A program made the translations under genes and the position numbers. This document shows positions 27,604 through 41,038 of a stretch of DNA of 64,000 nucleotides, one piece after another. Each line of letters starts with the position of its first letter. Positions within the stretch are counted from its first letter, which is position 1. Below the pieces are notes generated by a model, which ran no database searches, was not told where the DNA came from, and saw only the letters and a program-made list of their open reading frames with translations. The DNA is from an uncultured Actinomycetota bacterium (GTDB lineage Bacteria; Actinomycetota; Actinomycetes; Propionibacteriales; Nocardioidaceae): NCBI GenBank assembly GCA_963826265.1, contig CAWGWH010000002.1:1283246-1347245 (forward strand), in the 5' to 3' direction.

Positions 27604-29781
27604 ATGCATCGTCAGATCGCCGGCCGGCTGACCGGCCCAGTCACCAAATGGTTCGTCTTCGCCGCCGTTCTCGGCATCACGGTCCTGATGGCCGGCCTCA
27701 ACTCCAAGCTGATCGACGTCCAGAACAACGAGGCCTCGTCCTGGCTGCCTGGCTCCGCCGAGTCCACGAAAGTGGTCGAGGAGCTCTCGGGGACGATCGA
27801 TCCCAACGACATCCCGACCTTGGTCGTCTACCACAGCAGCTCCGGTCTGACCGACGACGACTTCGCGGCGATGGACGAGCAGGCACAGGAGATCGCGGCG
27901 ATCGACGGGGTCACCGACGAGGGTGTGATCTCCCCGAATGCCGCGGCCGAGCTGGAGGCTCAGGGTCAGCCGGTGCCACCGCTCGTCTCCGAGGACGGCG
28001 AGGTCGCCTATCTCGCGCTCACGTTCAACTTCGGTGAGAACGGCTGGAACGACATCCCGGCCGCTGCCGACCAGATCCGCGAGATCGCGCAGATCGACGG
28101 CGTCACGGTGCACCTGGCCGGCTTCGGCGGCCAGGCGGCCGACGCGGCTGAAGCGTTCGAGGGCATCGACACCAACCTGATCATGATCACGCTGCTCGTG
28201 GTGATCGTGATCCTGTTGTTCACCTATCGCAGCCCGATCCTCTGGCTGCTGCCGATCATCTCGGCCGTCGTCGCCTACACGATCTCGGGTGGTGTGGTCT
28301 ACCTGCTGGCGAGGTACGCCGATCTCACCGTGAACGGGCAGAGCCAGGCGATCCTGGGCATCCTGGTGATCGGCGCCGGCACCGACTACGCCCTCCTGCT
28401 CGTGGCCCGATATCGCGAGGAGCTGCGCCGCCACGAGGATCGGCATGAGGCGATGGCGTTCGCCCTCCACCGGGCCGCCCCGGCGATCATGGCCAGCGCC
28501 GCGACCGTCGTGGTCGGCATGCTGTGCCTGAGCTTCGCCGAGCTCAACTCGACCGCCGGCCTCGGACCGGTCCTCGCCGTGGGCGTCAGCGTCACCTTCC
28601 TGGTGATGGTGACCCTGCTCCCGGCCATGCTCGTGATCTGCGGCCGCTGGATCTTCTGGCCGAAGCGGCCGGCGTTCGGCTCGCCGGAGCCGACCAGCTC
28701 GGGTTTCTGGTCCAGGGTCGGCGGCCGGATCGCGCCTCGTCCGCGCTTCGTGTGGTCGGTGACGGCAGGTCTGTTGCTGGTGGCCTGCCTCGGCCTGTTC
28801 AAGCTCGACCCGTCCGGGCTCGCGACCGAGGAGTCCTACACGAAGGAGTTCGACTCGATCCAAGGTCAGGCCCTGCTGGCCGACCACGGGCTCGACGACA
28901 CCTCCAACACCGTCCAGGTGGTCGCCAACTCCGATCAGGTCACCGCCGTGCAGGAGGCGATGACCGGCATCGAGGGCCTGGGCGAGGCCAGGCCGGTGCA
29001 GGAGATCGGCGACGGTCGCTCGTTCTTCGAGGCGACGATCAGAGCGGACATCTCGTCCACTGCGGCGTTCGAAATCGTCGAGTCGACCCGCGACGCCGTC
29101 CACGACGTCGACGGTGCTGATGCCCTGGTCGGCGGTGGGTCGGCCTTCTACCTGGACACCAAGATCGCTTCCGAGCGCGACAACCGGGTCATCATGCCGA
29201 TCGTGCTGGTCGTGGTGTTCTTGATCCTGATCCTCCTGCTGCGGGCGCTGGCCGCGCCCCTGATCCTGATGGGGACGGTGGTCCTGTCGTTCGGAGCCGC
29301 GCTCGGCATCGCCACCTTGCTGTTCACCGAGGTGTTCACCCGGGCGCCGTTCTTCGAGGTCAACGAGGGGTTCGCGCACACCGATCCAGGGTTCCCGCTG
29401 TTCACGTTCGTGTTCCTGGTCGCTCTCGGCATCGACTACAACATCTTCCTGATGACTCGCGTCCGCGAGGAGACGGCGACCCGTGGCACCCGAGAGGGCT
29501 CGCTCGTGGCGCTGTCCTCGACCGGGGGTGTGATCACCTCGGCCGGCCTGGTCCTGGCGGCCACGTTCCTGGTGCTGGGCTCGCTGCCGCTGGTGTTCCT
29601 GGCCCAGCTCGGGGTGGCGGTGGCGCTCGGGGTGCTGCTCGACACGATGATCGTGCGGTCCGTGCTGGTCACCGCGATCAACCTCGACCTGGGCGGGAAG
29701 ATCTGGTGGCCGAGCAAGCTCGACCGTGGCGAGCCGCGGAAGGAGGCTCCGGCTCCCGAGGAGGAGTGGGCCCCGGCCTGA
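27604..29781 (+). CDS. MMPL-family (RND superfamily) membrane transporter
   Basis: 725 aa with two 6-TM bundles, each preceded by an extracytoplasmic loop. MMPL-typical segments include GAGTDYALLLVARYREEL and GIDYNIFLMTRVREE. Confidence 0.9.
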   Translation: MHRQIAGRLTGPVTKWFVFAAVLGITVLMAGLNSKLIDVQNNEASSWLPGSAESTKVVEELSGTIDPNDIPTLVVYHSSSGLTDDDFAAMDEQAQEIAAIDGVTDEGVISPNAAAELEAQGQPVPPLVSEDGEVAYLALTFNFGENGWNDIPAAADQIREIAQIDGVTVHLAGFGGQAADAAEAFEGIDTNLIMITLLVVIVILLFTYRSPILWLLPIISAVVAYTISGGVVYLLARYADLTVNGQSQAILGILVIGAGTDYALLLVARYREELRRHEDRHEAMAFALHRAAPAIMASAATVVVGMLCLSFAELNSTAGLGPVLAVGVSVTFLVMVTLLPAMLVICGRWIFWPKRPAFGSPEPTSSGFWSRVGGRIAPRPRFVWSVTAGLLLVACLGLFKLDPSGLATEESYTKEFDSIQGQALLADHGLDDTSNTVQVVANSDQVTAVQEAMTGIEGLGEARPVQEIGDGRSFFEATIRADISSTAAFEIVESTRDAVHDVDGADALVGGGSAFYLDTKIASERDNRVIMPIVLVVVFLILILLLRALAAPLILMGTVVLSFGAALGIATLLFTEVFTRAPFFEVNEGFAHTDPGFPLFTFVFLVALGIDYNIFLMTRVREETATRGTREGSLVALSSTGGVITSAGLVLAATFLVLGSLPLVFLAQLGVAVALGVLLDTMIVRSVLVTAINLDLGGKIWWPSKLDRGEPRKEAPAPEEEWAPA

Positions 29782-29787
29782 CCGGGG

Positions 29788-30639
29788 TCACGGCACCGCG
29801 AGCAGGTCCTCGTGGTGGACGGTCACCCGGAGGGTGCCGGCCTGCGCCTGCGCCAGGCGTCGACGCGCGTACGGCGCGGCGACCGGTGCGAGCTCGGGTC
29901 GCTGCTCGACGGCGGCGCCGACCCAGCCGGTGACCCACGCCGCCGCCAGTGCGTGCTCGTCGGGACCGAGCCGCCACGGACTCGGGAGTGTGGTCACGGC
30001 GAGCCCGGCCGCGTCGAGCTGAGCGACGGCCGCGGCCGGGGCGTCAGGCCCGAGCAGCGTTCCTGAACCGGTCGCCCGCCGCTGGTGGGCGTTGAACGCG
30101 TCCATCACGTCCCCGTCGAGCTCGTCCGACGGCGCGAGCTCGGCGCGGCCGACCACCGAGAGCGTCACCAGCACCGGGCACCCGGCCACGAGGCATTCCG
30201 CGACCAGCCGTTCGAGCTCCGGAGCGGTCAGCATGTCGAGCAGCGCCGACGCCGTCACCAGATCGGCGTCGCTCAGCGACTCCGGGGGGAGCCGGGTGAT
30301 GTCGTCCAGACGGCGCTCGATCGTGGCAGCGCTGCCGTCGGCGGCCGCCGGCGGTGGGTACGCCGCCGCCCGGTCGAGCAGGTCGCGGTCCCGGTCGTGC
30401 AGTACCCACCGCTGGGGACCCGGCAGCCTCGGCGCGAGCCACCGCGCCATCGAACCGGTGCCGGAACCCAGGTCGTGGACCACCAGGCCGCCGTCGGCCG
30501 GCAGGACGCGGCGGAGCGCGTCGACGAGCCCACCGGCCCTGGCCGCCGCGTCGGCGGGCTCGCGGAGGGCGAGCCAGTCGCCGTCGGCACGGACCACCTC
30601 GGACCCCATGCCACCTCCCTCATCGTCGGACGTCGTCAC
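29788..30639 (-). CDS. SAM-dependent methyltransferase
   Basis: 283 aa with motif I VVHDLGSGTGS. It is convergent with the MMPL gene with a 6-nt gap. Confidence 0.7.
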   Translation of the reverse strand: MTTSDDEGGGMGSEVVRADGDWLALREPADAAARAGGLVDALRRVLPADGGLVVHDLGSGTGSMARWLAPRLPGPQRWVLHDRDRDLLDRAAAYPPPAAADGSAATIERRLDDITRLPPESLSDADLVTASALLDMLTAPELERLVAECLVAGCPVLVTLSVVGRAELAPSDELDGDVMDAFNAHQRRATGSGTLLGPDAPAAAVAQLDAAGLAVTTLPSPWRLGPDEHALAAAWVTGWVGAAVEQRPELAPVAAPYARRRLAQAQAGTLRVTVHHEDLLAVP

Positions 30640-30678: not shown

Positions 30679-31308
30679 TCAAGAGCTCAGACGCCTGAGA
30701 CTGGCGAGGACGTTGATCTCGCCGGCGTGTCCCACTCGGCCGGTCAGCGTGGCTTCACCGTCGAGCGGTGAGCCCAACACCCGTGCGACGGCGAGCTCGA
30801 GGTCTCCGGCCCTGACCAGCGTGACCATGCCCTCGTCGGTCACCGAGTCGACCGAGGTCACGTCCGGAGCCTCGCCGGAGGTGCCGCTTCCGCGCACCTG
30901 CATCCGGGGTGGGATGTCGACGCGCTCGCCATCTTGCTCGAAGTACATCTGCGCCTGCGTGCCGCCGGTCAGGATCGCGGCGGCCAGGGTGGCCGCCCAG
31001 ACCGGGTCGCCACAGCCGTCGTACACCCATCGATCCCCCAGCACGGAGTGCTCACTGGTCCCGATCAGGTGGGTCTCAGCCCCCGCGAGCGGAGTCGCAC
31101 GGTAGGTGAGCGGGGTCTGCAGCACGGCGCCGCCTTCGGACAGCCAGAGGATCGTCTCGACGCCCACCTCGCCGGCGGGATCGTCGAAGCGGTACTCGGC
31201 GAGCTTTTCCGCCACGGTGCGATCTGAGGCCCAGGACCGCGTCGGGAGCCACGACTCGACAAGCTCCTGCTTCGAGGGAGAGAGCGTGGCTCGGTGGACA
31301 ATGCCCAT
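30679..31308 (-). CDS. Maltokinase N-terminal cap-like domain protein (function unknown)
   Basis: 209 aa starting MGIVHRATLSPSKQELVESWLPTRSW, with ...YRFDDPAGEVGVE...LTYR...HSVLGDRWVYDGCGDPV. From memory, this matches stand-alone Mak_N_cap-like proteins. Confidence 0.55.
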   Translation of the reverse strand: MGIVHRATLSPSKQELVESWLPTRSWASDRTVAEKLAEYRFDDPAGEVGVETILWLSEGGAVLQTPLTYRATPLAGAETHLIGTSEHSVLGDRWVYDGCGDPVWAATLAAAILTGGTQAQMYFEQDGERVDIPPRMQVRGSGTSGEAPDVTSVDSVTDEGMVTLVRAGDLELAVARVLGSPLDGEATLTGRVGHAGEINVLASLRRLSS

Positions 31309-31412: not shown

Positions 31413-32138
31413 GTGGTCGTGGTGCCGGTCGGCCGGGCGCTCGCGGCTGGGCTCGTCGCGCTGTCCGCCCTGCTCGCCGGGCTGACGGCGAACCCCGGCC
31501 TGACTGTCCCGGCCTGGGGCACCGGGCTGGTGTGCGGCGGGCTGGTGGCGGTGGCGGTCGTCCGGGGCCTCGCTCGGGACGACGCAGATCACCTGACGCC
31601 GGCCGATGTGGTCACGCTGACCCGGGCCATGATCGCCTGCGCGGTCGCGGCCCTGATGGTGGAGTCGTGGCTCGGCCACACCGCGACGGCACTGCTCGTC
31701 GGGCTCGCGGTGATCGCCCTGGTGCTCGACTCGGTCGACGGCCGGGTGGCGCGGGTGACCCGGCGGTCGACCGGGTTCGGGGCGCGCTTCGACGGCGAGG
31801 CCGACGCGTTCCTCCTGCTCGTGCTCAGTGCCCACGTGGCGGCGTCGCACGGTGTCTGGGTGCTGGCGATCGGCGCCGCCCGCTACGCCTTCTGGGCGGT
31901 GGGGTCCGTCTGGCCGTGGCTGCGCAGTCCGCTCCCACGGCGCGACTGGCGCAAGGTCGTCACGGCCGTCCAGGGGATCGTGCTCGTCGCCGCCGCCGCG
32001 GACGTGGCGCCGCGGCCCGCGGTCACGCTGGCCCTGGTAGCGGCCCTGGTCCTGCTCACGGAGTCGTTCGGCCGAGACGTCCTCTGGCTGGTGCGGCGCC
32101 GGCCCCGGGCACGGCTCGTCGGAGCGTCCGCGCCGTGA
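31413..32138 (+). CDS. CDP-alcohol phosphatidyltransferase family protein
   Basis: 241 aa polytopic protein with a perfect DGx2ARx8Gx3Dx3D motif (DGRVARVTRRSTGFGARFDGEAD). Confidence 0.85.
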   Translation: MVVVPVGRALAAGLVALSALLAGLTANPGLTVPAWGTGLVCGGLVAVAVVRGLARDDADHLTPADVVTLTRAMIACAVAALMVESWLGHTATALLVGLAVIALVLDSVDGRVARVTRRSTGFGARFDGEADAFLLLVLSAHVAASHGVWVLAIGAARYAFWAVGSVWPWLRSPLPRRDWRKVVTAVQGIVLVAAAADVAPRPAVTLALVAALVLLTESFGRDVLWLVRRRPRARLVGASAP

Positions 32139-32896
32139 CCACCACCGACGACCGCGCCGCGTACGGGCTCGCCCTGGAGCAGGCACGGCAGGCGGCGTAC
32201 CCGCCCGGTGAGTACGTCGGGCAGGAGAGCTTCATGACGGCCTCCGAGATCCGCGCGCTGGCGGGGGGCGCGCGTATCGGCCGGGCGGACCGGGTGCTCG
32301 ACGTCTGCTGCGGGGTCGCCGGGCCGGGCCGTCTCGTGGCAGCCGAGACGGGATGTCGCTACCTCGGCGTCGACCTCGACCCGGGCGCTGTCGCGGCGGC
32401 CCGGCTGGCCGCGGCCGACCTGCCGTGCCGGTTCGAGGTACGCCGGGTGCCGCCCCTCCCGCCGGGAACCTTCGACGTCGTGCTGCTGCTCGAGACGTTG
32501 CTGGCCTTCCACGAGAAGCGGCCGCTGCTGGCGGCGGTCGCGGCAGCGCTGCGGCCCGGCGGCCGGTTCGCCCTGACGGTCGAGGAGGGGGCGCCGCTGA
32601 CCGCGCCGGAGCGAGCGAGGATGCCGGCGTCCGACACGGTGTTTCCGGTGCCGCTGCCCGACCTGGTCGACCTGCTGGAACAGGAGGGCTTCGGGGTCGA
32701 CTCGATCGAGGAGTGCAGTGATGCCCACCGGGACACGGCGGCGGCGCTGGCGGACGCGTTCGAGGCCGACGGGGTCTCGATCGGCGCCCAGATCGGGCTG
32801 GGCACGCTCGACGACCTGGTCGCGGCACACCGGCTCTGGGCCGAGTGGCTGGGTGCCGGCCGGATCCGCAAGCTGTCCCTCATTGCCGTCCGGTGA
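32135..32896 (+). CDS. Class I SAM-dependent methyltransferase, translationally coupled to the phosphatidyltransferase
   Basis: The GTG start overlaps the upstream stop (GTGA at 32135-32138). Motif I is VLDVCCGVAGPG. Confidence 0.8.
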   Translation: MTTTDDRAAYGLALEQARQAAYPPGEYVGQESFMTASEIRALAGGARIGRADRVLDVCCGVAGPGRLVAAETGCRYLGVDLDPGAVAAARLAAADLPCRFEVRRVPPLPPGTFDVVLLLETLLAFHEKRPLLAAVAAALRPGGRFALTVEEGAPLTAPERARMPASDTVFPVPLPDLVDLLEQEGFGVDSIEECSDAHRDTAAALADAFEADGVSIGAQIGLGTLDDLVAAHRLWAEWLGAGRIRKLSLIAVR

Positions 32897-32994: not shown

Positions 32995-33411
32995 ATGGGC
33001 ACGCGCGTGCTGGCGGCGCTGGCGGTGCTGGTGTCGGCGGGGGTGCACCTCTACCTCTGGGACGACGGCTACAAGGACCTCGACAAGATCGGGCCCGCGT
33101 TCCTTCTCAACGCGGCCGGTGGGGTGGTGATCGCGGTGCTCCTGCTCGCCTGGTCCCACTGGATCCCGGCGTTCCTGGCACTCGGGTTCGGGGTGTCGAC
33201 GCTCGGCGCCTTCATCATCTCGACCACTGTGGGGCTCTTCGGACTGGAGGAGTCGTGGGAGGGCTGGTACGTGTGGACGGCGGCGGGTTCGGAGGTGGCC
33301 GCGATCCTGCTGGGTGGGATGCTCCTGCTCCGCAACAACCCGCTGCGCCCAGGTGGCTCAGGTGGCGAGTCGCAGCACCACGCGGCCGTCCGTCGTCCGG
33401 ACCTCCACTGA
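32995..33411 (+). CDS. Small 4-TM membrane protein, function unknown
   Basis: 138 aa from ATG 32995, preceded by GAAGGGAG. The 3' end overlaps the convergent anti-sigma gene by 54 nt. Confidence 0.5.
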   Translation: MGTRVLAALAVLVSAGVHLYLWDDGYKDLDKIGPAFLLNAAGGVVIAVLLLAWSHWIPAFLALGFGVSTLGAFIISTTVGLFGLEESWEGWYVWTAAGSEVAAILLGGMLLLRNNPLRPGGSGGESQHHAAVRRPDLH

Positions 33412-34080
33412 GGCGAGCTCGGCGGGCGTACGCGCGGTGGCGGCCATGATCGTCATCTCGCGGCCGCCCACCGACCGCCAGCTGCCGACCTGCTCCATGC
33501 GCCCGGTCCGAGTCCGCACGAACAGCTCGTAGTCGGCCTCCGGAGGCAGGTCGTAGGGGACCGCGTCCGGGTCGTAGGTGCACGTGAGCCCGACCCGGGT
33601 TCCCCAGGTGACCTCCTCCAGGCTCACGGTGGCCCGGACCGGCACCTCGCCGACCGGTGCCATCTGCAGCTCCGGCACCGGTTCCTCCGACACGTCGGCC
33701 GTGGGCTGCCCGGGCGGCGGTGCGGGGTCCTCGCCGAGCTGCGCGAGGCCCACGGGTACGACGACGAGCAGCGCCGAGGCGGCAGCGATCCCGGCCGTGA
33801 GCAGCGTGCGGCGGCGCCGGCTGCGTCGTACCTCGCCCATCAGCGCGGGCAGCAGTGTCGGCGGCGGCTCGTGCACCGGCCCGGCCATCGGCTCCTCGAG
33901 CACCGTGGCGTCGACGCGTCCGAGCAGGCCGGGGAGCCCCGCCAGCGCGGCAACCGACCGGGTGCAGACCGCGCACGTGGCCAGGTGCTGCTTGAAGGCC
34001 ACCCGCTCGGCCGGGGAGAGCGCTCCCAGCACGTAGGCGCCGTCGTCGTGCACGAACTCGCAGCTCATGGGGGTGTTCAT
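33358..34080 (-). CDS. Anti-sigma factor (zf-HC2 type) with one TM segment and an extracytoplasmic domain
   Basis: 240 aa from ATG 34080 (MNTPMSCEFVHDDGAYVLGALSPAERVAFKQHLATCAVC). Its start overlaps the sigma gene stop (ATGA). Confidence 0.75.
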   Translation of the reverse strand: MNTPMSCEFVHDDGAYVLGALSPAERVAFKQHLATCAVCTRSVAALAGLPGLLGRVDATVLEEPMAGPVHEPPPTLLPALMGEVRRSRRRRTLLTAGIAAASALLVVVPVGLAQLGEDPAPPPGQPTADVSEEPVPELQMAPVGEVPVRATVSLEEVTWGTRVGLTCTYDPDAVPYDLPPEADYELFVRTRTGRMEQVGSWRSVGGREMTIMAATARTPAELASVEVRTTDGRVVLRLAT

Positions 34081-34610
34081 GCCTCCACCCCCAGTTCCTC
34101 GAGCGCCAGCCGCAGCGCGCGCAGCGCGTAGTGCGTACGTGACTTCACCGTGCCCTCGGGGACCTCCAGGCGCCGGGCCGCCTCGGCGACCGGCCGGCCA
34201 CGGTAGTAGCACTCGAGCAGCACGTCGCGGTGCTCGCGTGACAGGCGGGTGAGTGCCTCGGCCACGACCCACGACAGCAGCAGCTGGTCACTCTCGTCGG
34301 CCACCCCGTCGTCGGGCAGCTCGGCGAGCGGCGTCTCGCGGTGGGAGCGGCTGCTCCGCCACTGGTCGATCACGATGTTGCGGGCGACGGTGAAGAGCCA
34401 CGCCCGCACCGCCTGCGGCGGACTCTCCAGGATGGTGCGGTGCCGCCAAGCGCGCAGCAGCGTCTCCTGGGCCACGTCCTCGGCCCGACCCTGGTCGGTG
34501 GGCACGAGCCGTCGGCAGTAGCGCCACAGGGCGACCGCGTGGTCGTCGTGCAGCTGCTGCATGAGCATGACGTCGGGATCGGGCACTGGATTGGACACCT
34601 GCTTCCTCAC
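34077..34610 (-). CDS. ECF-type RNA polymerase sigma factor
   Basis: 177 aa. Region 2 reads DVAQETLLRAWRH. Region 4 reads RDVLLECYYRGRPVAEAARRLEVPEGTVKSRTHYALRAL. Confidence 0.9.
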   Translation of the reverse strand: MRKQVSNPVPDPDVMLMQQLHDDHAVALWRYCRRLVPTDQGRAEDVAQETLLRAWRHRTILESPPQAVRAWLFTVARNIVIDQWRSSRSHRETPLAELPDDGVADESDQLLLSWVVAEALTRLSREHRDVLLECYYRGRPVAEAARRLEVPEGTVKSRTHYALRALRLALEELGVEA

Positions 34611-34640: not shown

Positions 34641-36338
34641 TCACCGCGGTCCGGTCGGCCGGTCCCCATTGTGGCTGCCACCGGCGTACGCCGCGACGAA
34701 ACGGTCCCGGAACGCGTCCATCCGCCACACCGGGGCGTCCGGCTCCGGTCGCAGGCCGGCGTCCCAGCCCCAGCCGGCGATCCGGTCGAGCACGGCCGGG
34801 TCGCGCGCGATCACCGCGACCGGCACGTCGTTCCCGGCATCGGACCCGGACACGATCGTGGCCGGCTGGTGGTCGCCCAGCACGACCACCACGAGGTCGT
34901 CGTCGCCATAGGTCGTCACGAACCGGACGAACGCCCGCAGTGAGTAGGTGACGGCGTCGAAGTAGGCCTGCCGCACCCGCTCGCGGTCGGGCCAGATGTC
35001 CGCCTCGGACGGGAGTGTCTGCGGCATCCCGTCGAAGACCGAGCCGTCGCCGACGTCGGCCTGGTCGATCAGCCGGGGGACCCGCGACCAGGGCGCGTGG
35101 CTGGTGATCAGGTCGATCTCCGCCATCACCGGCCGGCGCGGGTGCGGCGCGAGCTCGAGCCGGTGGAACGCGTCGAGGGTGTACTGGTCGGGCATCGTGG
35201 GGTAGCCGAACCGTGGGCCCTCGTAGCCGACGTTGCGCGAGTCGTAGACGTGGTCGAAGTCGTAGAACTCACCCTGCGGCCAGTCCCGGTTGTTGGCGGG
35301 GACGGAGGCCACCGTGCGCCAACCGGCCCGGCCGAACAGCCGCGTGAGGGTCAGCCGGGGGCTGGTCACCAGCACGTCGTACCGCGGCTGGCTGTCGATC
35401 CAGAGGCCCGACTGGAGCGTGGCGTGGGCCAGCCAGCTGAGTGCGCCGAAGGTCGGCGAGGTGAGGTAGGCGCTCCGGCTCTCGAAACCGGCCTCTTCCA
35501 GCTGCTCGTTGCCGGCGTCCATCGTGTACGTGACCCGCGGGGAGAGATCCGGATCCTCCAGCGCCACCCGGCCCAGGCTCTCGACGAAGACGATCAGCAC
35601 GTCCTTGCCGCGCAGGCCCTCGAGCAGGTCCTCGCCGGGCACGTCTCCCAGCGGATCGGAGCGGGAGGCCACCAGGAACTCGCGGCGGTCCGCCAGCTGC
35701 CCCGGGATCCGGGTGACCTGGCCCTGCACGTAGGTGGCGGTGTCGTGGCTGGCGATCGGACCGGCCGGGCCGCGTACGTCGAGCAGCGTGAGCACCAGCC
35801 AGAGCGCCGTCAGTACGGCCACCGCCGGCAGCGCCACGGCGCGGTGACGCGACGCCACCCGGGCTACCCGCAGCACCGCGAGCGGCAGCAGCACGAGCAG
35901 CGCGACCACGGCCACCCCACCCCCGACCACGAGGAGGGTGCCCAGCCGCGGCCCGAAGGAGTCGCGGACGGTCTCGACCAGGGAGGCGGCGTACCGCCAG
36001 TCGATCAGGGGGTCGAAGGGCCGGTTCAGCGCCTCGACGAACCCGATGTCGAACAGCTTGAACACCGCGGCCAGACCGAGGACCACCCCCGCGGTCATCG
36101 CCAGCGCCGAACGCAGCCACGCCGGCCGCGCCGGGACGAGCAGCACGGCAGCGACCAGGAGCACTGCTTCGACGGGCAGCCGGAGGAACGCCGAGGGACG
36201 CAGGTCCTCGAGGCTCGTCGGGGCGGTCATTGCCGCGACCACCAGGGCGAGCGCGAGCACCGACCGGACTACGGAGCCGACGCGTGTCCACCACGGGACG
36301 GAACCGGGTTGAACCGAGCGCACGGCCACTCCGTTCAC
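34641..36338 (-). CDS. Membrane-anchored sulfatase / LtaS-like (alkaline-phosphatase superfamily) phospho-headgroup transferase
   Basis: 565 aa with about 5 N-terminal TM segments, then VLIVFVESLG (metal-binding Glu context), TSPTFGALSW (candidate Thr nucleophile) and VVVLGDHQP. The start codon is GTG and the exact start is uncertain. Confidence 0.7.
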   Translation of the reverse strand: MNGVAVRSVQPGSVPWWTRVGSVVRSVLALALVVAAMTAPTSLEDLRPSAFLRLPVEAVLLVAAVLLVPARPAWLRSALAMTAGVVLGLAAVFKLFDIGFVEALNRPFDPLIDWRYAASLVETVRDSFGPRLGTLLVVGGGVAVVALLVLLPLAVLRVARVASRHRAVALPAVAVLTALWLVLTLLDVRGPAGPIASHDTATYVQGQVTRIPGQLADRREFLVASRSDPLGDVPGEDLLEGLRGKDVLIVFVESLGRVALEDPDLSPRVTYTMDAGNEQLEEAGFESRSAYLTSPTFGALSWLAHATLQSGLWIDSQPRYDVLVTSPRLTLTRLFGRAGWRTVASVPANNRDWPQGEFYDFDHVYDSRNVGYEGPRFGYPTMPDQYTLDAFHRLELAPHPRRPVMAEIDLITSHAPWSRVPRLIDQADVGDGSVFDGMPQTLPSEADIWPDRERVRQAYFDAVTYSLRAFVRFVTTYGDDDLVVVVLGDHQPATIVSGSDAGNDVPVAVIARDPAVLDRIAGWGWDAGLRPEPDAPVWRMDAFRDRFVAAYAGGSHNGDRPTGPR

Positions 36339-36424: not shown

Positions 36425-37423
36425 ATGCAGCGGGAGGCGTGGGCGTTCTGGTTGCGCGAGCCGGGCGCGGGAGAGATCCGGCCTGCCCGGCTCACACCAC
36501 CTGGGCCCGACGACGTGCTGGTCCGCACCGTGTGCTCCGGGGTGAGCCGTGGCACCGAGTCGCTGGTCTTCAGCGGGAGGGTCCCGACCGGGCAGCGCGC
36601 CGTCATGCGCGCGCCGTTCCAGGAGGGGGAGTTCCCGGCGCCGGTGAAGTACGGCTACCTCAACGTGGGAGTCGTCGAGGTCGGGCCGTCCGGGCTGCTG
36701 GGACGCACCGTCTTCTGTCTGCACCCCCACCAGACGGCGTACGTCGTCCCCGCCTCGGCGGTGACCCTGGTGCCCGACGACGTCCCGGCGCGCCGGGCGG
36801 TCCTGGCCGGACTGGTCGAGACCGCGGTCAACGCGCTCTGGGACGCCGGCCCGCTGCTCGGTGACCGGGTGGCCGTGGTGGGCGCCGGAGCCCTGGGCTG
36901 CTGCGTCGCCCGGCTGCTGGTCGCGATCCCCGGGGTCTCGGTGACGTTGGTCGACGTCGACCCCGGCCGAGCCGCGGTCGCGGCGGCCCTGGGCGTCGGC
37001 TTCTCGCTGCCCGGTGACGCGCCGGGCGACCTGGACCTCGTGATGCACACGAGTGCCACGTCGAAGGGGCTGCAACGGTCCCTGGAGCTGCTCGCGCCGG
37101 AGGGCACCGTCGTCGAGCTCAGCTGGTACGGCGACGCCGAGACGACCCTGTCGCTGGGAAGTGGCTTCCACTCCGGCCGGCTGACGATCCGCGGCAGCCA
37201 GGTCGGGTCGATCGCGGCGGCACGTCGTGTGCGGTGGACCACGGCCGACCGGCTCCGGCTCGCGCTCGACCTCCTGCGTGACCCGGCTTTCGACGTACTT
37301 CTGACCGGCCGATCCCGTTTCGCCGACCTCCCCGCGGTGCTGCCCAGGCTGGTGAGCGGCGAGCTCCCCGCCCTGTGCCACTCGGTGTCCTACGAGGACG
37401 GTGACCTGCCGTGTTCAGCGTGA
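36425..37423 (+). CDS. MDR-superfamily dehydrogenase (BchC-like subgroup, SGxSxGTE motif)
   Basis: 332 aa from ATG 36425 with GGGAG upstream. It has [10 protein letters not shown] and the Rossmann motif [10 protein letters not shown]. Confidence 0.85.
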
Positions 37424-37803
37424 GCGTGCGCGACCACATGATGGTCGCCCACAGCCTGCGCGGCGACGTCTTCGGCCCGGCGCAGGCGCTGCACGGTGCG
37501 ACGTTCGTGGTGGACGCGACGTTCGCCGGGCCGGCCGTGGACGACGACGGGATCCTGGTCGACATCGGCCGGGCCGCCGGCGCGCTGCGGGTGGTGGTCG
37601 CAGACCTGGGCTACCGCAACCTCGACGAGGACGACCGGTTCGTCGGTCGCAACACCACGACCGAGGTGCTGGCCCAGCACGTGGCCGACCGGTTGGCCGA
37701 GCAGGTCGGCGGCGAGGGACTGGGCGACGGCCGCGTGACCCGCCTGACGGTCACCCTGCACGAGTCGCACGTCGCGCGGGCGAGCTACGAGAGAGGGGTA
37801 TGA
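37411..37803 (+). CDS. 6-pyruvoyl-tetrahydropterin synthase / QueD-family T-fold protein, predicted non-canonical
   Basis: 130 aa with MMVAHSL...LHGATF aligning to the QueD AAHRL...C..LHGHSF region. The GTG start overlaps the upstream gene by 13 nt. Confidence 0.8.
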
Positions 37804-38843
37804 GTGTGACCCCGATCGTGACGATGGTCGCCCCGGACGGGGTCGGTGACCCGCTCCGGCCGAGCGGTGGCAACACCTACGACCGTCGGCTGTGCCAGGA
37901 GCTGGCGGCCGCCGGGTGGGCTGTCGACCTGCAGCTGGTCCCAGGTGGCTGGCCGCGGGCCGACGCGGAGTCACGTCTCCACCTGGCGGCCGTCCTGGCC
38001 CGGCCACCCGCCGGCGCCTCGGTGCTGCTCGACGGGCTGGTCGCGCTCGCCGCACCCGACGTGGTGGTGCCGGAGGGCCGGCGCCTCCGGACGGTGGTGA
38101 TCGTGCACATGCCGCTCGGCTACGCAGGCGAAGGAGCCGTGCTGCGCTCGGCGACCGCCGTCGTCGCCACCAGTCACTGGACCCGCCGCTGGCTGCTCTC
38201 CCGCCACCGGCTCGACCCGGCCCGCGTGCACGTCGCCGCACCGGGCGTCGATCCCGCACCGCCGGCAGCTGGGAGCCCCGAAGGCGGCTCCCTCCTGTGC
38301 GTCGGCGCGGTGGTGCCGGCGAAGGGGCACGACCTGCTCGTCGCCGCGCTGGCCTCGGTCGCCGACCTGCCCTGGCGGTGCGTGTGCGTGGGCCCGCTGG
38401 ACCGCGATCCGACGTACGTCGCCCGGCTCCGCGCCGACATCGCGGCGGCCGGCCTCGGCGACCGGGTCGAGCTCACCGGGCCGCTCACCGGGGGGCGCCT
38501 CGCCGCGGCCTACGCGGCGGCCGACGTCCTGGTGCACGCCAGCCGGGCCGAGACCTACGGGATGGTCGTCACCGAGGCGTTGGCCCGAGGTCTGCCGGTG
38601 GTCGCGTGTGCGGCGGGTGGGGTGCCGGAAGCGCTGGGGGCCGCACCCGACGGCGGCACGCCGGGTGTGCTCACCCCCGTCGACGACGTCGACGCCCTGG
38701 CACGCGCCCTGCGCGGCTGGATCACGGACGCCGGACTGCGCAGACGGTTGCGGGCCGCCGCACGGAGCCGACGGCCGCAGCTGGCCGACTGGCTGGCCAC
38801 GGGCCACCGGGTGGCCCGGGTGCTCGAGGACGTGGCGGCATGA
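37800..38843 (+). CDS. GT-B fold glycosyltransferase (GT4-like)
   Basis: 347 aa with the EX7E motif ETYGMVVTE followed by [10 protein letters not shown]. An ATGA overlap couples it to the upstream gene. Confidence 0.85.
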
Positions 38844-39724
38844 GTCCCCGGTGGGGGTGGCTCCTGGGTTCCGCCGTGCTCGTTGCCGTGGTGTGGTGGC
38901 TCGGTACCGACCCGTTCGTGAGCGGCGTACGCGCCCTCGACGTCGAGACCTTGGCGGTGGGCGCGGCGCTGGGCGTGCCGATCACCGTGGCGAGTGCGTG
39001 GCGCTGGCGACTGGTGGCGCGTGGACTGGGCGTCGACCTGCCGGTGGGCCGGGCGACGGCGGCCTGCTACCGGTCCCAGCTCCTCAACTCGGTGCTCCCC
39101 GGTGGGGTCCTCGGTGACGTGCACCGAGGCCTCGACCACGGACGCGCCGCCGGTGACTCGGCCCGCGGGCTGCGCTCGGTCGCCTGGGAGCGGACGGCGG
39201 GCCAGATCGTGCAGGCGTCGGTCGCCGTCCTCGTCCTGGTGCTGATGCCGTCACCGGCGCGGTCGTCGCTGCCGGGGATGCTCACGATCCTGGTCGTCGG
39301 CGTGGTGCTGCTCGCGGTCCTCGTGCGCCGCTGGTCGACGCTGCGAGCCGACCTCGCAATGCTGCTCGAGCGGCGGATCTGGCCCGGCGTGGTGCTGGCC
39401 TCGACCGTGGTCGTGGCCGGCCTGGTGGCGACCTTCGTCGTCGCCGCCCGTGCGGTCGGCGTCACCGCACCGCTGCCGACCCTGGTGCCGCTGGCAGTGC
39501 TGGTGCTGGTCGCGGCGGCCGTGCCCTCGAACCTGGCGGGGTGGGGGCCCCGCGAGGGCATGGCCGCCTGGGCGTTCGCCGCAGCCGGCCTGGGCGCGGA
39601 GCAGGGCCTGGCCACGTCGGTCGCGTTCGGCGTCATGGTGGTGGTGGCCGTGCTGCCGGGCGTCGCGGTGCTCGTCGTCGGGACGCGTGCGCGGGAAAGA
39701 GCGGAGGAGCCGGTCCATGGCTGA
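38840..39724 (+). CDS. LPG_synthase_TM / UPF0104-family membrane protein (homologous to the MprF flippase domain)
   Basis: 294 aa with about 8 TM segments and WRWRLVARGLGVDLPVGRATAACYRSQLLNSVLPGGVLGDVHRG. It has an ATGA overlap upstream and an 8-nt overlap downstream. Confidence 0.7.
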   Translation: MSPRWGWLLGSAVLVAVVWWLGTDPFVSGVRALDVETLAVGAALGVPITVASAWRWRLVARGLGVDLPVGRATAACYRSQLLNSVLPGGVLGDVHRGLDHGRAAGDSARGLRSVAWERTAGQIVQASVAVLVLVLMPSPARSSLPGMLTILVVGVVLLAVLVRRWSTLRADLAMLLERRIWPGVVLASTVVVAGLVATFVVAARAVGVTAPLPTLVPLAVLVLVAAAVPSNLAGWGPREGMAAWAFAAAGLGAEQGLATSVAFGVMVVVAVLPGVAVLVVGTRARERAEEPVHG

Positions 39725-40412
39725 GCGCCCGTACACGATCCTCAGCTGCGGGGTCTCGATCGACGGCTATCTCGACGCCGCGACCCCCGAGCGGCTGGTG
39801 CTCTCGAACGACGACGACCTGCGGCGGGTTGACGCCGTCCGGGCGGACGTCGACGCGATCCTGGTCGGCGCCGAGACCGTACGCCACGACAACCCCCGGC
39901 TGCTCGTGCGCGACGCCCGGCTGCGCGAGTGCCGGCGGGCCCGCGGGCTGGGCGAGCACCCGATGAAGGTGACGGTGACGCGAGGTGGTCGGCTCGACCC
40001 GACGGCGTGCTTCTTCGCGACCGGCGACTGCGAGAAGGTCGTCTACTGCGAACGAGGGAGCGTCGAGGCGGCCCGTGCCCGCCTGGGCTCGGTCGCGACC
40101 GTGGTCGACGGAGGTGACCCGGTAGCCATCCGCAGCCTGAGCGAGGACCTCTGGGGGCGCGGCGTACGACGGTTGATGGTCGAGGGGGGCGGGCAGATCC
40201 ACACGCAGTTCCTCACCGCCGGGCTCGCCGACGAGCTGCACCTGGTGGTGGCGCCGTTCTTCGTCGGCGACCCGCGGGCCCGCCGCTTCGTGGGGGCCGG
40301 CGCCTTCCCGTGGCACCCGGGGCACCGGGCGCACCTCGCGGAGACCCGTCAGATGGGCGACGTGGTGCTGCTGCGCTACGCCTTCGCTCCGGACCGGGAG
40401 GCCGTGTCGTGA
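39717..40412 (+). CDS. RibD C-terminal-domain reductase (diaminopyrimidine ribosyl reductase type) lacking a deaminase domain
   Basis: 231 aa with SIDGYLD, ILVGAETVRHDNPRL and MVEGGGQIHTQFLTAGLADELHLVVAPFFVG. Confidence 0.85.
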   Translation: MAERPYTILSCGVSIDGYLDAATPERLVLSNDDDLRRVDAVRADVDAILVGAETVRHDNPRLLVRDARLRECRRARGLGEHPMKVTVTRGGRLDPTACFFATGDCEKVVYCERGSVEAARARLGSVATVVDGGDPVAIRSLSEDLWGRGVRRLMVEGGGQIHTQFLTAGLADELHLVVAPFFVGDPRARRFVGAGAFPWHPGHRAHLAETRQMGDVVLLRYAFAPDREAVS

Positions 40413-41038
40413 GGCGCGCGACGGTACGCCGCTCGGTGCGGATGCCGCTGCGCATGGGCGGGGGAGAGGTCGTCGACGGCGTGGTGCACACCTTCGACGG
40501 CCTGGTGGACGACGCCGAGCACCTCGTGGTGGGGCTCGGTGTCGTCCAGGCGGGCAGGGTGCCGCTGGTGCGGCTGCACAGCGAGTGCCTGACCGGGGAC
40601 GCACTGGGCAGCGCCCGCTGCGACTGCGGCCCGCAGCTGGCCGAGGCGGTCGAGCGGCTGTCCGAAGTCGGCGGCTACCTCGTGTACCTGCGGCAGGAGG
40701 GGCGGGGGATCGGGCTGTACAACAAGATCGACGCCTACGCACTGCAGGATCGCGGGCTCGACACGTTCGAGGCGAACCGAGCGCTGGGTTTCGGCGACGA
40801 CGAGCGCTCGTACGGCGTGGCGGCGCAGATGCTCCTCGCGCTCGGGGTCGACCGGGTCACTCTGCTCACGAACAACCCCGACAAGGTCGGCCAGCTGCAC
40901 GCCGCGGGCGTGACCGTCGAGGACTTCCTGACCACCGGGCTGCACCTCTCGCCGGTCAACCGGCGCTACCTGTCGGCCAAGGCCGGCCACGGCCACCGGT
41001 TGCTCGGCCTGCTCGCGACGCACGCCGATCCGGCGTGA
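40409..41038 (+). CDS. ribA: Monofunctional GTP cyclohydrolase II
   Basis: 209 aa with LHSECLTGDALGSARCDCG (zinc Cys triad), YLRQEGRGIGLYNKIDAYALQD and LLTNNPDKV. A GTGA overlap couples it to the upstream gene. Confidence 0.92.
   Translation: MRRATVRRSVRMPLRMGGGEVVDGVVHTFDGLVDDAEHLVVGLGVVQAGRVPLVRLHSECLTGDALGSARCDCGPQLAEAVERLSEVGGYLVYLRQEGRGIGLYNKIDAYALQDRGLDTFEANRALGFGDDERSYGVAAQMLLALGVDRVTLLTNNPDKVGQLHAAGVTVEDFLTTGLHLSPVNRRYLSAKAGHGHRLLGLLATHADPA

Follow-up and report, generated by a model that had tools for sequence, protein, structure and literature searches.

The open reading frame (ORF) at positions 37411–37803 of a 64,000-nucleotide (nt) stretch of DNA from an uncultured member of the Nocardioidaceae (contig CAWGWH010000002.1; the whole stretch is referred to below as the window) encodes, on the forward strand and from a GTG start to a TGA stop, a 130-residue T-fold protein that is a member of the PTPS-IV (SCO6650-type) subfamily of COG0720. 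Gene context places it, as one component, in a conserved pathway whose first enzyme is GTP cyclohydrolase II. Judged by the residues that it has lost and kept, it is neither PTPS, CPH4 synthase (QueD) nor PTPS-III, since the catalytic Cys, third His and Asp–His relay are replaced throughout the PTPS-IV family. We consider it probable that it nevertheless remains an enzyme, and catalyses a step other than that of PTPS on a pyrimidine or pterin derived from GTP cyclohydrolase II, within the pathway encoded by the surrounding cluster. Any specific reaction that might be assigned to it is far less certain than this general role.

Subfamily membership follows from both sequence and context. The ORF is the only one in the window that belongs to COG0720, and residues 4–127 of its product match the Pfam PTPS family (PF01242) with an E-value of 3e-21. 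The protein scores 181.6 bits against a PTPS-IV profile, as opposed to 21.2 bits against one for canonical QueD/PTPS-II, and its score with TIGR03367, the QueD equivalog model, is 35.5 bits, far under the cutoff of 89.25. Residues 21–25 read FGPAQ, the signature given as typical of PTPS-IV in place of a Cys-containing motif, and PF00925 and PF01872 are reported as characteristic PTPS-IV neighbours in the supplement to the same paper (PMC5445326); both of these families are encoded in the operon of ORF 37411–37803. The subfamily name and its signature were therefore already in print (PMC5445326), and neither had been mentioned in the initial annotation of this DNA. In that supplement (of the AGeNNT paper), PF00925 is described as ‘GTP cyclohydrolase I; includes FolE2’ (PMC5445326); PF00925 is GTP cyclohydrolase II, and the claim that FolE2 is a neighbour of PTPS-IV looks like a labelling slip.

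The residue correspondences were established with three independent alignments: a HMMER profile built from 30 homologues and searched against PDB chains; an hhalign comparison of the 30-homologue profile with QueD from E. coli and P. aeruginosa, and with human, rat and C. elegans PTPS; and a MAFFT alignment of 35 sequences, which reaches both termini. The QueD and human PTPS reference sequences were checked residue by residue against the PDB chains. The register is identical in all three, with an hhalign probability of 96% for the PTPS-IV profile against the QueD/PTPS-II alignment. In the HMMER alignment, an 11-residue stretch of the window protein lies opposite ‘FGKCNnsNGHGHN’ of C. elegans, rat and human PTPS, ‘PAQALHGAT’ lies opposite ‘K(C/A)GRLHGHS’ of E. 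coli QueD, and ‘YRNLD’ opposite ‘DH(K/R)NLD’.

In PTPS and QueD, three His residues hold a zinc ion, which binds the side-chain hydroxyls; a Cys, activated by an Asp–His pair, abstracts the side-chain protons; and the Glu of a TTE motif holds the pterin in place by its 2-amino-4-oxo-pyrimidine edge. The window protein keeps two of the zinc ligands, His14 (codon at 37450–52) and His28 (37492–94) being equivalent to H16 and H31 of QueD, respectively. Ala24 (37480–82) occupies the position of QueD C27 and of the PTPS-II Cys, Ala30 (37498–500) that of H33, the third zinc ligand, and Gly67–Tyr68 (37609–14) that of D70–H71. The ring anchor is retained as Thr83–Thr84–Glu85 (37657–65), as is Glu118 (37762–64), the equivalent of QueD E110. 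Thus, the QueD motif CxxxHGH is absent, the aligned stretch being A24-QAL-H28-G-A30 in all three alignments; the PTPS-II motif CxxxxxHGH and its Asp–His relay are also absent, with Ala24, Ala30 and Gly67–Tyr68 opposite the Cys, His and Asp–His of 2g64, 1b66 and 3i2b; and so is the PTPS-III motif ExxHGH, Gln25 standing at the site of its catalytic Glu and Ala30 at that of its last His. A catalytic Cys displaced along the chain is ruled out, as there is not a single Cys in the translated sequence of the mature protein. From an alignment made by eye, the initial annotation had proposed that the first zinc His was kept, that Ala24 and Ala30 replaced the catalytic Cys and the third zinc His, and that the Asp–His pair was missing; the profile alignment that it recommended reproduces its register, and the residue numbers are exact. 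Its corollary, that the protein lacks PTPS and CPH4-synthase activity, is probably correct, given the missing residues.

Its orthologue in S. coelicolor, SCO6650 (PDB code: 3D7J; released in 2008), to which the initial annotation had compared it, is also the closest protein of known structure: it is the best PDB match (phmmer E-value 1.9e-45 over the full length, 62% sequence identity), and the Foldseek TM-score is 0.93. SCO6650 carries the same FGPAQxLHGAT and YRNLD motifs, and its PDB sequence (FGPAQRLHGATF and LNYRNLD) bears out the loss of the triad cited in that annotation, with the same substitutions of the Cys, third His and Asp–His pair and the same retentions. The AlphaFold2 monomer model suggested in the initial annotation has a mean pLDDT of 90.5 and a pTM of 0.85, and is closest to 3D7J. 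The 2008 structure paper reportedly describes SCO6650 as a homohexameric T-fold protein with no zinc and no PTPS activity. The loss of the triad and the third ligand is, in itself, already published knowledge, through SCO6650 and the PTPS-IV subfamily.

Canonical members of the superfamily are considerably more distant, with TM-scores to QueD and PTPS of 0.75–0.80 at around 20% identity. E. coli QueD (PDB code: 4NTM) shares the T-fold, zinc ligands 1 and 2 (both His) and the Glu at E110 (our Glu118), but at ~21% identity it differs in having CxxxHGH where the window protein has AxxxHGA, and D70–H71 where the latter has Gly–Tyr; moreover, unlike in the QueD context, there are no queuosine genes near the window gene. 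The resemblance to PTPS-II (PDB codes: 1B66, 3I2B and 2G64) extends to the ‘FG’ that precedes the Cys site, (K/R)NLD, TTE and the C-terminal Glu, and 2g64 is the best profile match among PDB chains after SCO6650 (E-value 1e-5). However, the window protein lacks the PTPS-II Cys, third His and Asp–His pair, together with the two-residue insertion of CxxxxxHGH, and its genetic context features GTP cyclohydrolase II instead of cyclohydrolase I or sepiapterin reductase. Matches to PyrR and phosphoribosyl pyrophosphate (PRPP) transferases in the PDB searches were weak, partial and devoid of fold-search support, and were discarded as noise.

The substitutions are not a peculiarity of this protein. 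Database searches return >8000 homologues, and 629 representatives of a 50%-identity library have E-values ≤1e-10. In 29 members that are 40–64% identical to the query, the invariant positions are His14, Ser15, Phe21, Gly22, Pro23, Ala24, His28 and Gly29, and, further along the chain, Thr31, Asp51, Leu71, Asp72, Thr84, Glu85 and Glu118. A census was then taken of 405 aligned domains (120 of close homologues, 166 of the 50%-identity representatives and 119 of a marine clade): none of them has Cys at position 24 and none has His at position 30, where Ala is found, or Cys or Ile in haptophyte domains only, and His14, His28, Glu85 and Glu118 are essentially fixed. Position 25 is Gln in 147 and Glu in three of the 166 representative domains. 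Because Cys24 and His30 are never seen while His14, His28, Glu85 and Glu118 are near-invariant, the losses are, on this pattern of conservation, ancient and selected and not the product of decay; the same strong conservation rules out a pseudogene. The conserved Ala24 and Ala30 suggest a pocket that has been remodelled for work, rather than one that has relaxed. Loss of such residues would be ordinary on its own; here, it characterizes a large family that spans soil actinomycetes, AT-rich marine bacteria and haptophyte algae, and for which the database name ‘6-carboxytetrahydropterin synthase’ is almost certainly wrong.

PTPS-IV comes second in an operon of six genes, all on the forward strand and translationally coupled, with every start overlapping the preceding stop. 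The first (36425–37423), which shares 13 nt with the beginning of the PTPS-IV gene, encodes a medium-chain dehydrogenase/reductase (MDR)-like Rossmann protein with weak ADH_zinc_N and BchC matches (the former under the Pfam cutoff) and a weak resemblance to the polyol(-phosphate) dehydrogenases 4oh1 and 4a2c (E-values of 1e-4 to 3e-3). Zinc alcohol dehydrogenases usually carry a GHE zinc-ligand motif; at the site of this motif, the MDR-like protein has ‘KYGYLNVG’, and it may therefore lack a catalytic zinc, like PTPS-IV. Downstream, the ATG of a GT4 glycosyltransferase gene (37800–38843; Glycos_transf_1, E-value 6.5e-30) overlaps the PTPS-IV stop (ATGA); the nearest named families of this enzyme are EpsE, MshA and BshA, all under cutoff. 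The fourth gene (38840–39724), which shares 4 nt with the end of the GT4 gene and 8 nt with the next gene, encodes a flippase-like membrane protein (LPG_synthase_TM, PF03706, E-value 4e-23; TIGR00374). The fifth (39717–40412) encodes a RibD_C pyrimidine reductase of the archaeal/eukaryotic type (PF01872, E-value 3.8e-37; 130.8 bits on TIGR01508, under cutoff): its closest PDB chains are 5xv5, 5xux and 5xv0, each labelled ‘Conserved protein’ (E-value ~5e-25), and its closest named chains, 6p8c and 2azn, are 2,5-diamino-6-ribosylamino-4(3H)-pyrimidinone 5'-phosphate reductases. The operon ends with GTP cyclohydrolase II (40409–41038; PF00925, E-value 7.7e-53; 247 bits on NF001591, above cutoff), the probable GTG start of which, at 40409, overlaps the reductase stop (GTGA). 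The enzyme keeps a Tyr, in ‘IDAYALQD’, at the position of Y105 in E. coli RibA.

Three further genes of the window recur alongside these in relatives. A class I S-adenosylmethionine (SAM)-dependent methyltransferase, here called MT1 (29788–30639, reverse strand; Methyltransf_25; N-terminal motif, WLxLREPAD), is encoded 7 kb away from the operon, unlike in most other loci, where it sits inside the operon between the GT4 and flippase-like genes. A CDP-alcohol phosphatidyltransferase is encoded at 31413–32138 on the forward strand (PF01066, E-value 9e-14), and a membrane protein with a C-terminal domain of the sulfatase/alkaline-phosphatase superfamily (weak PF00884, E-value 6e-6) at 34641–36338 on the reverse strand, divergently from the six-gene operon.

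To define what is conserved, 80 loci encoding relatives, gathered via a narrow homologue alignment, were searched with the window proteins; they are mostly from Actinomycetota (Nocardioides, Micromonospora, Streptomyces, Pseudonocardia, Solirubrobacterales and Thermoleophilia), and two are proteobacterial. The MDR-like and GT4 proteins are each found in 79 loci, and MDR, PTPS-IV and GT4 genes are adjacent in 79 of the 80. The flippase-like protein (72 loci), CDP-alcohol phosphatidyltransferase (66), RibD_C reductase (61), MT1 (56), sulfatase-like protein (50) and GTP cyclohydrolase II (48) follow, with a creatininase-family protein in 13. Unbiased clustering of the ORFs in these loci, filtered on G+C content at third codon positions (GC3) against the shadow ORFs of high-GC DNA, recovered the same neighbour families and no further widespread one; queC, queE, queF and folE are not among the conserved neighbours in the 80 loci.

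The cyclohydrolases fall into two types that covary with their partners. The Tyr-type enzyme, as in the window, occurs in 34 loci, and the RibD_C reductase accompanies it in 31 of these; an enzyme with Met, His or Leu in place of the Tyr occurs in 13 loci (from Streptomyces, Nocardiopsis and Pseudonocardia), every one of which has the creatininase-family gene and none the reductase. Hence the Streptomyces loci share the MDR–PTPS–GT4 neighbourhood of the window but differ in having a Met-type cyclohydrolase and a creatininase-family gene where the window has a Tyr-type enzyme and RibD_C. The creatininase family includes the archaeal deformylase ArfB, and Spoonamore and Bandarian are reported to have found that SCO6655, which is of the Met type, takes the reaction only as far as the formylated pyrimidine. 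The Streptomyces-type clusters resemble the early steps of the archaeal riboflavin/F420 route (GTP cyclohydrolase III/ArfA, ArfB and ArfC) by combining a non-Tyr cyclohydrolase II with an enzyme of ArfB's family, and the window reductase is closest to the ArfC type; the archaeal route differs from the cluster in having no PTPS-like, GT4 or methyltransferase component. On the ArfB model itself, the creatininase-family protein scores 40 bits against a cutoff of 180. The third RibA homologue of S. coelicolor has been credited with ‘a completely new function’ (PMC13151069).

At a locus (L081) of a 26%-GC marine bacterium, genes for a creatininase, an MDR-like protein (32% identity), PTPS-IV, GT4, an MT1-like protein, RibD_C and a Tyr-type GTP cyclohydrolase II adjoin one another, and the flippase-like, CDP-alcohol phosphatidyltransferase and sulfatase-like proteins are missing. 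The haptophytes Emiliania huxleyi and Gephyrocapsa oceanica encode proteins of 370–855 residues with three tandem PTPS-IV domains (P0121, P0122, P0130, P0135, P0138 and P0181), and the C-terminal region of P0138 matches the MT1 profile with an hhalign probability of 87.6% (E-value 3.5e-6); pairwise BLASTP between the haptophyte C-terminus and MT1 is marginal, and in P0181, also one of the longer proteins, the MT1 motif is recognizable by eye only. On the combined evidence of the counts in the 80 loci, the marine cluster and the haptophyte fusion, the conserved core consists of GTP cyclohydrolase II, the reductase and/or a creatininase-type enzyme, the MDR-like protein, PTPS-IV, GT4 and MT1, and the flippase-like, CDP-alcohol phosphatidyltransferase and sulfatase-like proteins are actinobacterial additions.

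Several details of these relatives deserve mention. In the middle PTPS-IV domain of the haptophyte proteins, the equivalent of His14 and the FGPAQ signature have degenerated, and a ‘DLDS’ stretch between the PTPS-IV and methyltransferase parts might be a HAD-like motif. In a 305-residue database representative (P0264), a PTPS-IV domain comes after an ADH_zinc_N segment; this protein is either a genuine MDR::PTPS-IV fusion or the result of reading through the stop and start codons where they overlap. At L003:6553-8958, and in ~38 other actinobacterial loci, a single ORF of ~800 residues, which may be a fusion and is divergent from the MDR/PTPS-IV operon, covers both the CDP-alcohol phosphatidyltransferase and the sulfatase-like protein; in the window, these are two genes on opposite strands.

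In the literature searched, we found no description of the breadth of the residue loss, the wider gene set, the Tyr/Met covariation or the haptophyte fusion. What is new here, accordingly, is the breadth and invariance of the loss, the wider gene set with MT1 and the actinobacterial membrane enzymes, the covariation of Tyr with the reductase and of Met with the creatininase, and the fusion of triple PTPS-IV domains to a methyltransferase in haptophytes. The gene set, with its core, its methyltransferase fusion and its Tyr/reductase and Met/creatininase variants, offers a testable handle on the product.

What PTPS-IV might do within this set is suggested by what it has kept. By analogy with PTPS, the TTE anchor would still bind a 2-amino-4-oxo-pyrimidine ring, which makes the product of GTP cyclohydrolase II, or its ribityl form, candidate ligands, as both carry exactly that ring. 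The same class of substrate is indicated by the neighbouring reductase, whose closest named relatives (6p8c and 2azn) reduce the cyclohydrolase II product, and by the covariation of the cyclohydrolase type with the reductase or the creatininase. The invariant His14, His28 and Glu118 suggest that acid–base chemistry, or the metal chemistry of a 2-His/1-carboxylate site, survives for use on the side chain. The retained TTE motif and Glu118 are likewise in keeping with the proposal in the initial annotation of pterin or pyrimidine binding coupled to a different chemistry. In the mechanism that we envisage, PTPS-IV would hold either the GTP cyclohydrolase II product or the ribityl compound to which this is reduced, in each case by the pyrimidine ring, and, working closely with the MDR-like enzyme encoded just upstream, carry out an acid–base or 2-His/1-Glu metal-assisted step, distinct from that of PTPS, on the ribosyl or ribityl side chain. 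More specifically, the reductase would generate a ribitylamino-pyrimidine; the polyol-dehydrogenase-like MDR protein could oxidize this at C2', giving the very keto-amine that GTP cyclohydrolase I produces through an Amadori rearrangement; ring closure or other processing might then take place in the zinc-less T-fold pocket; and MT1 and, subsequently, GT4 would methylate and glycosylate the product. The end product would be a methylated, glycosylated metabolite derived from GTP, which in actinomycetes would be handled at the membrane. Only tentatively do we propose that the conserved core as a whole, from GTP cyclohydrolase II to MT1 and GT4, constitutes an undescribed, widespread pathway from GTP to a methylated and glycosylated pyrimidine or pterin. 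If true, the first three of these steps would amount to a route to a neopterin-type pterin that is independent of GTP cyclohydrolase I, and the flippase-like protein, the CDP-alcohol phosphatidyltransferase and the sulfatase-like transferase of Actinomycetota would link its product to the chemistry of lipids or of the envelope.

A number of observations weigh against a catalytic role of this kind. GTP cyclohydrolase II is encoded within 10 kb of the PTPS-IV gene in only 48 of the 80 loci, and the Streptomyces-type clusters, having no reductase, imply that the ribityl form is not a universal substrate. The SCO6650 crystal reportedly contained no metal, which weakens the idea of a 2-His/1-Glu metal site, and the accessible literature yielded no activity, ligand or metal for any member of PTPS-IV. 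Finally, a remark citing unpublished data ties PTPS-IV to F420 (PMC5041015).

The protein could instead be a non-catalytic pseudo-enzyme, a subunit, carrier or scaffold that binds a pyrimidine or pterin and so shields an unstable intermediate or hands it on to the MDR-like or GT4 enzyme. Such a role would accord with the disappearance of the PTPS/QueD catalytic residues while the ring anchor was kept, with the gene overlaps on either side and the adjacency in 79 of the 80 loci, which suggest co-production of the three proteins in a fixed ratio, and with the appearance of P0264 as an MDR::PTPS fusion. Pure binding, however, leaves unexplained why His14, His28 and Glu118, the remnants of the metal and acid–base site, are near-invariant from actinomycetes to marine proteobacteria, and the conservation of Ala24 and Ala30 points to a reshaped, working pocket; we therefore regard this possibility as unlikely.

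A role in F420/FO biosynthesis, or in supplying a pyrimidine precursor of riboflavin or FO (for example, as the missing deaminase that acts after the archaeal-type reductase), appears quite improbable to us. In PTPS, the His/Glu site that is retained here faces the side chain and not the 2-amino group. Moreover, the tightest partners of PTPS-IV are the GT4, methyltransferase and MDR-like proteins, none of which figures in known F420 or riboflavin routes, the ORF clustering revealed no F420 gene among the conserved neighbours, and the Rfam search of the window found no flavin mononucleotide (FMN) riboswitch. Its attractions are that GTP cyclohydrolase II and an archaeal-type reductase would provide the first steps towards the FO pyrimidine, and the remark citing unpublished data mentioned above (PMC5041015). 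There is only a very slight chance that the protein is a divergent but functional QueD or PTPS with a shifted Cys and His, or a zinc-sparing paralogue of the QueD2 type, despite the PTPS-family Pfam match, the labelling of homologues as ‘6-carboxytetrahydropterin synthase’ in databases and the tolerance of a displaced Cys reported for PTPS-I in work on COG0720: the protein is free of Cys, neither Cys24 nor His30 occurs in any of the 405 domains, the TIGR03367 score is 35.5 bits against 89, the queC, queE, queF and folE partners are absent, and the TM-score of the model to QueD2 (7v0f) is only 0.64. Our preferred reading remains a catalytic one, in which the T-fold pocket acts on the side chain of a pyrimidine or pterin supplied by GTP cyclohydrolase II.

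The remaining features of the window lie on the MT1 side of the operon. A second SAM-dependent methyltransferase (MT2; 32150–32896, forward strand; Methyltransf_11/12) is loosely associated with the cluster, being present in 18 of the 80 loci. An extracytoplasmic function (ECF) sigma factor (34077–34610, reverse strand) is encoded between the lipid-type genes and the operon, and its gene is overlapped by that of a putative anti-sigma factor (33358–34272, reverse strand); such a pair is found near the cluster in 17–18 of the 80 loci and may regulate it. MT1 is flanked by genes for an MMPL-family transporter (E-value 8.5e-117) and a Mak_N_cap/CG0192-related protein, at 27604–29781 and 30679–31308, neither of which was found in the other loci among the 80 searched. 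No Rfam element of any kind reached its gathering score in the 64-kb window. Near-identical DNA is found in soil metagenome runs only, with no RNA runs among them, and the closest genome locus is from a Nocardioides sp., at 73% protein identity.

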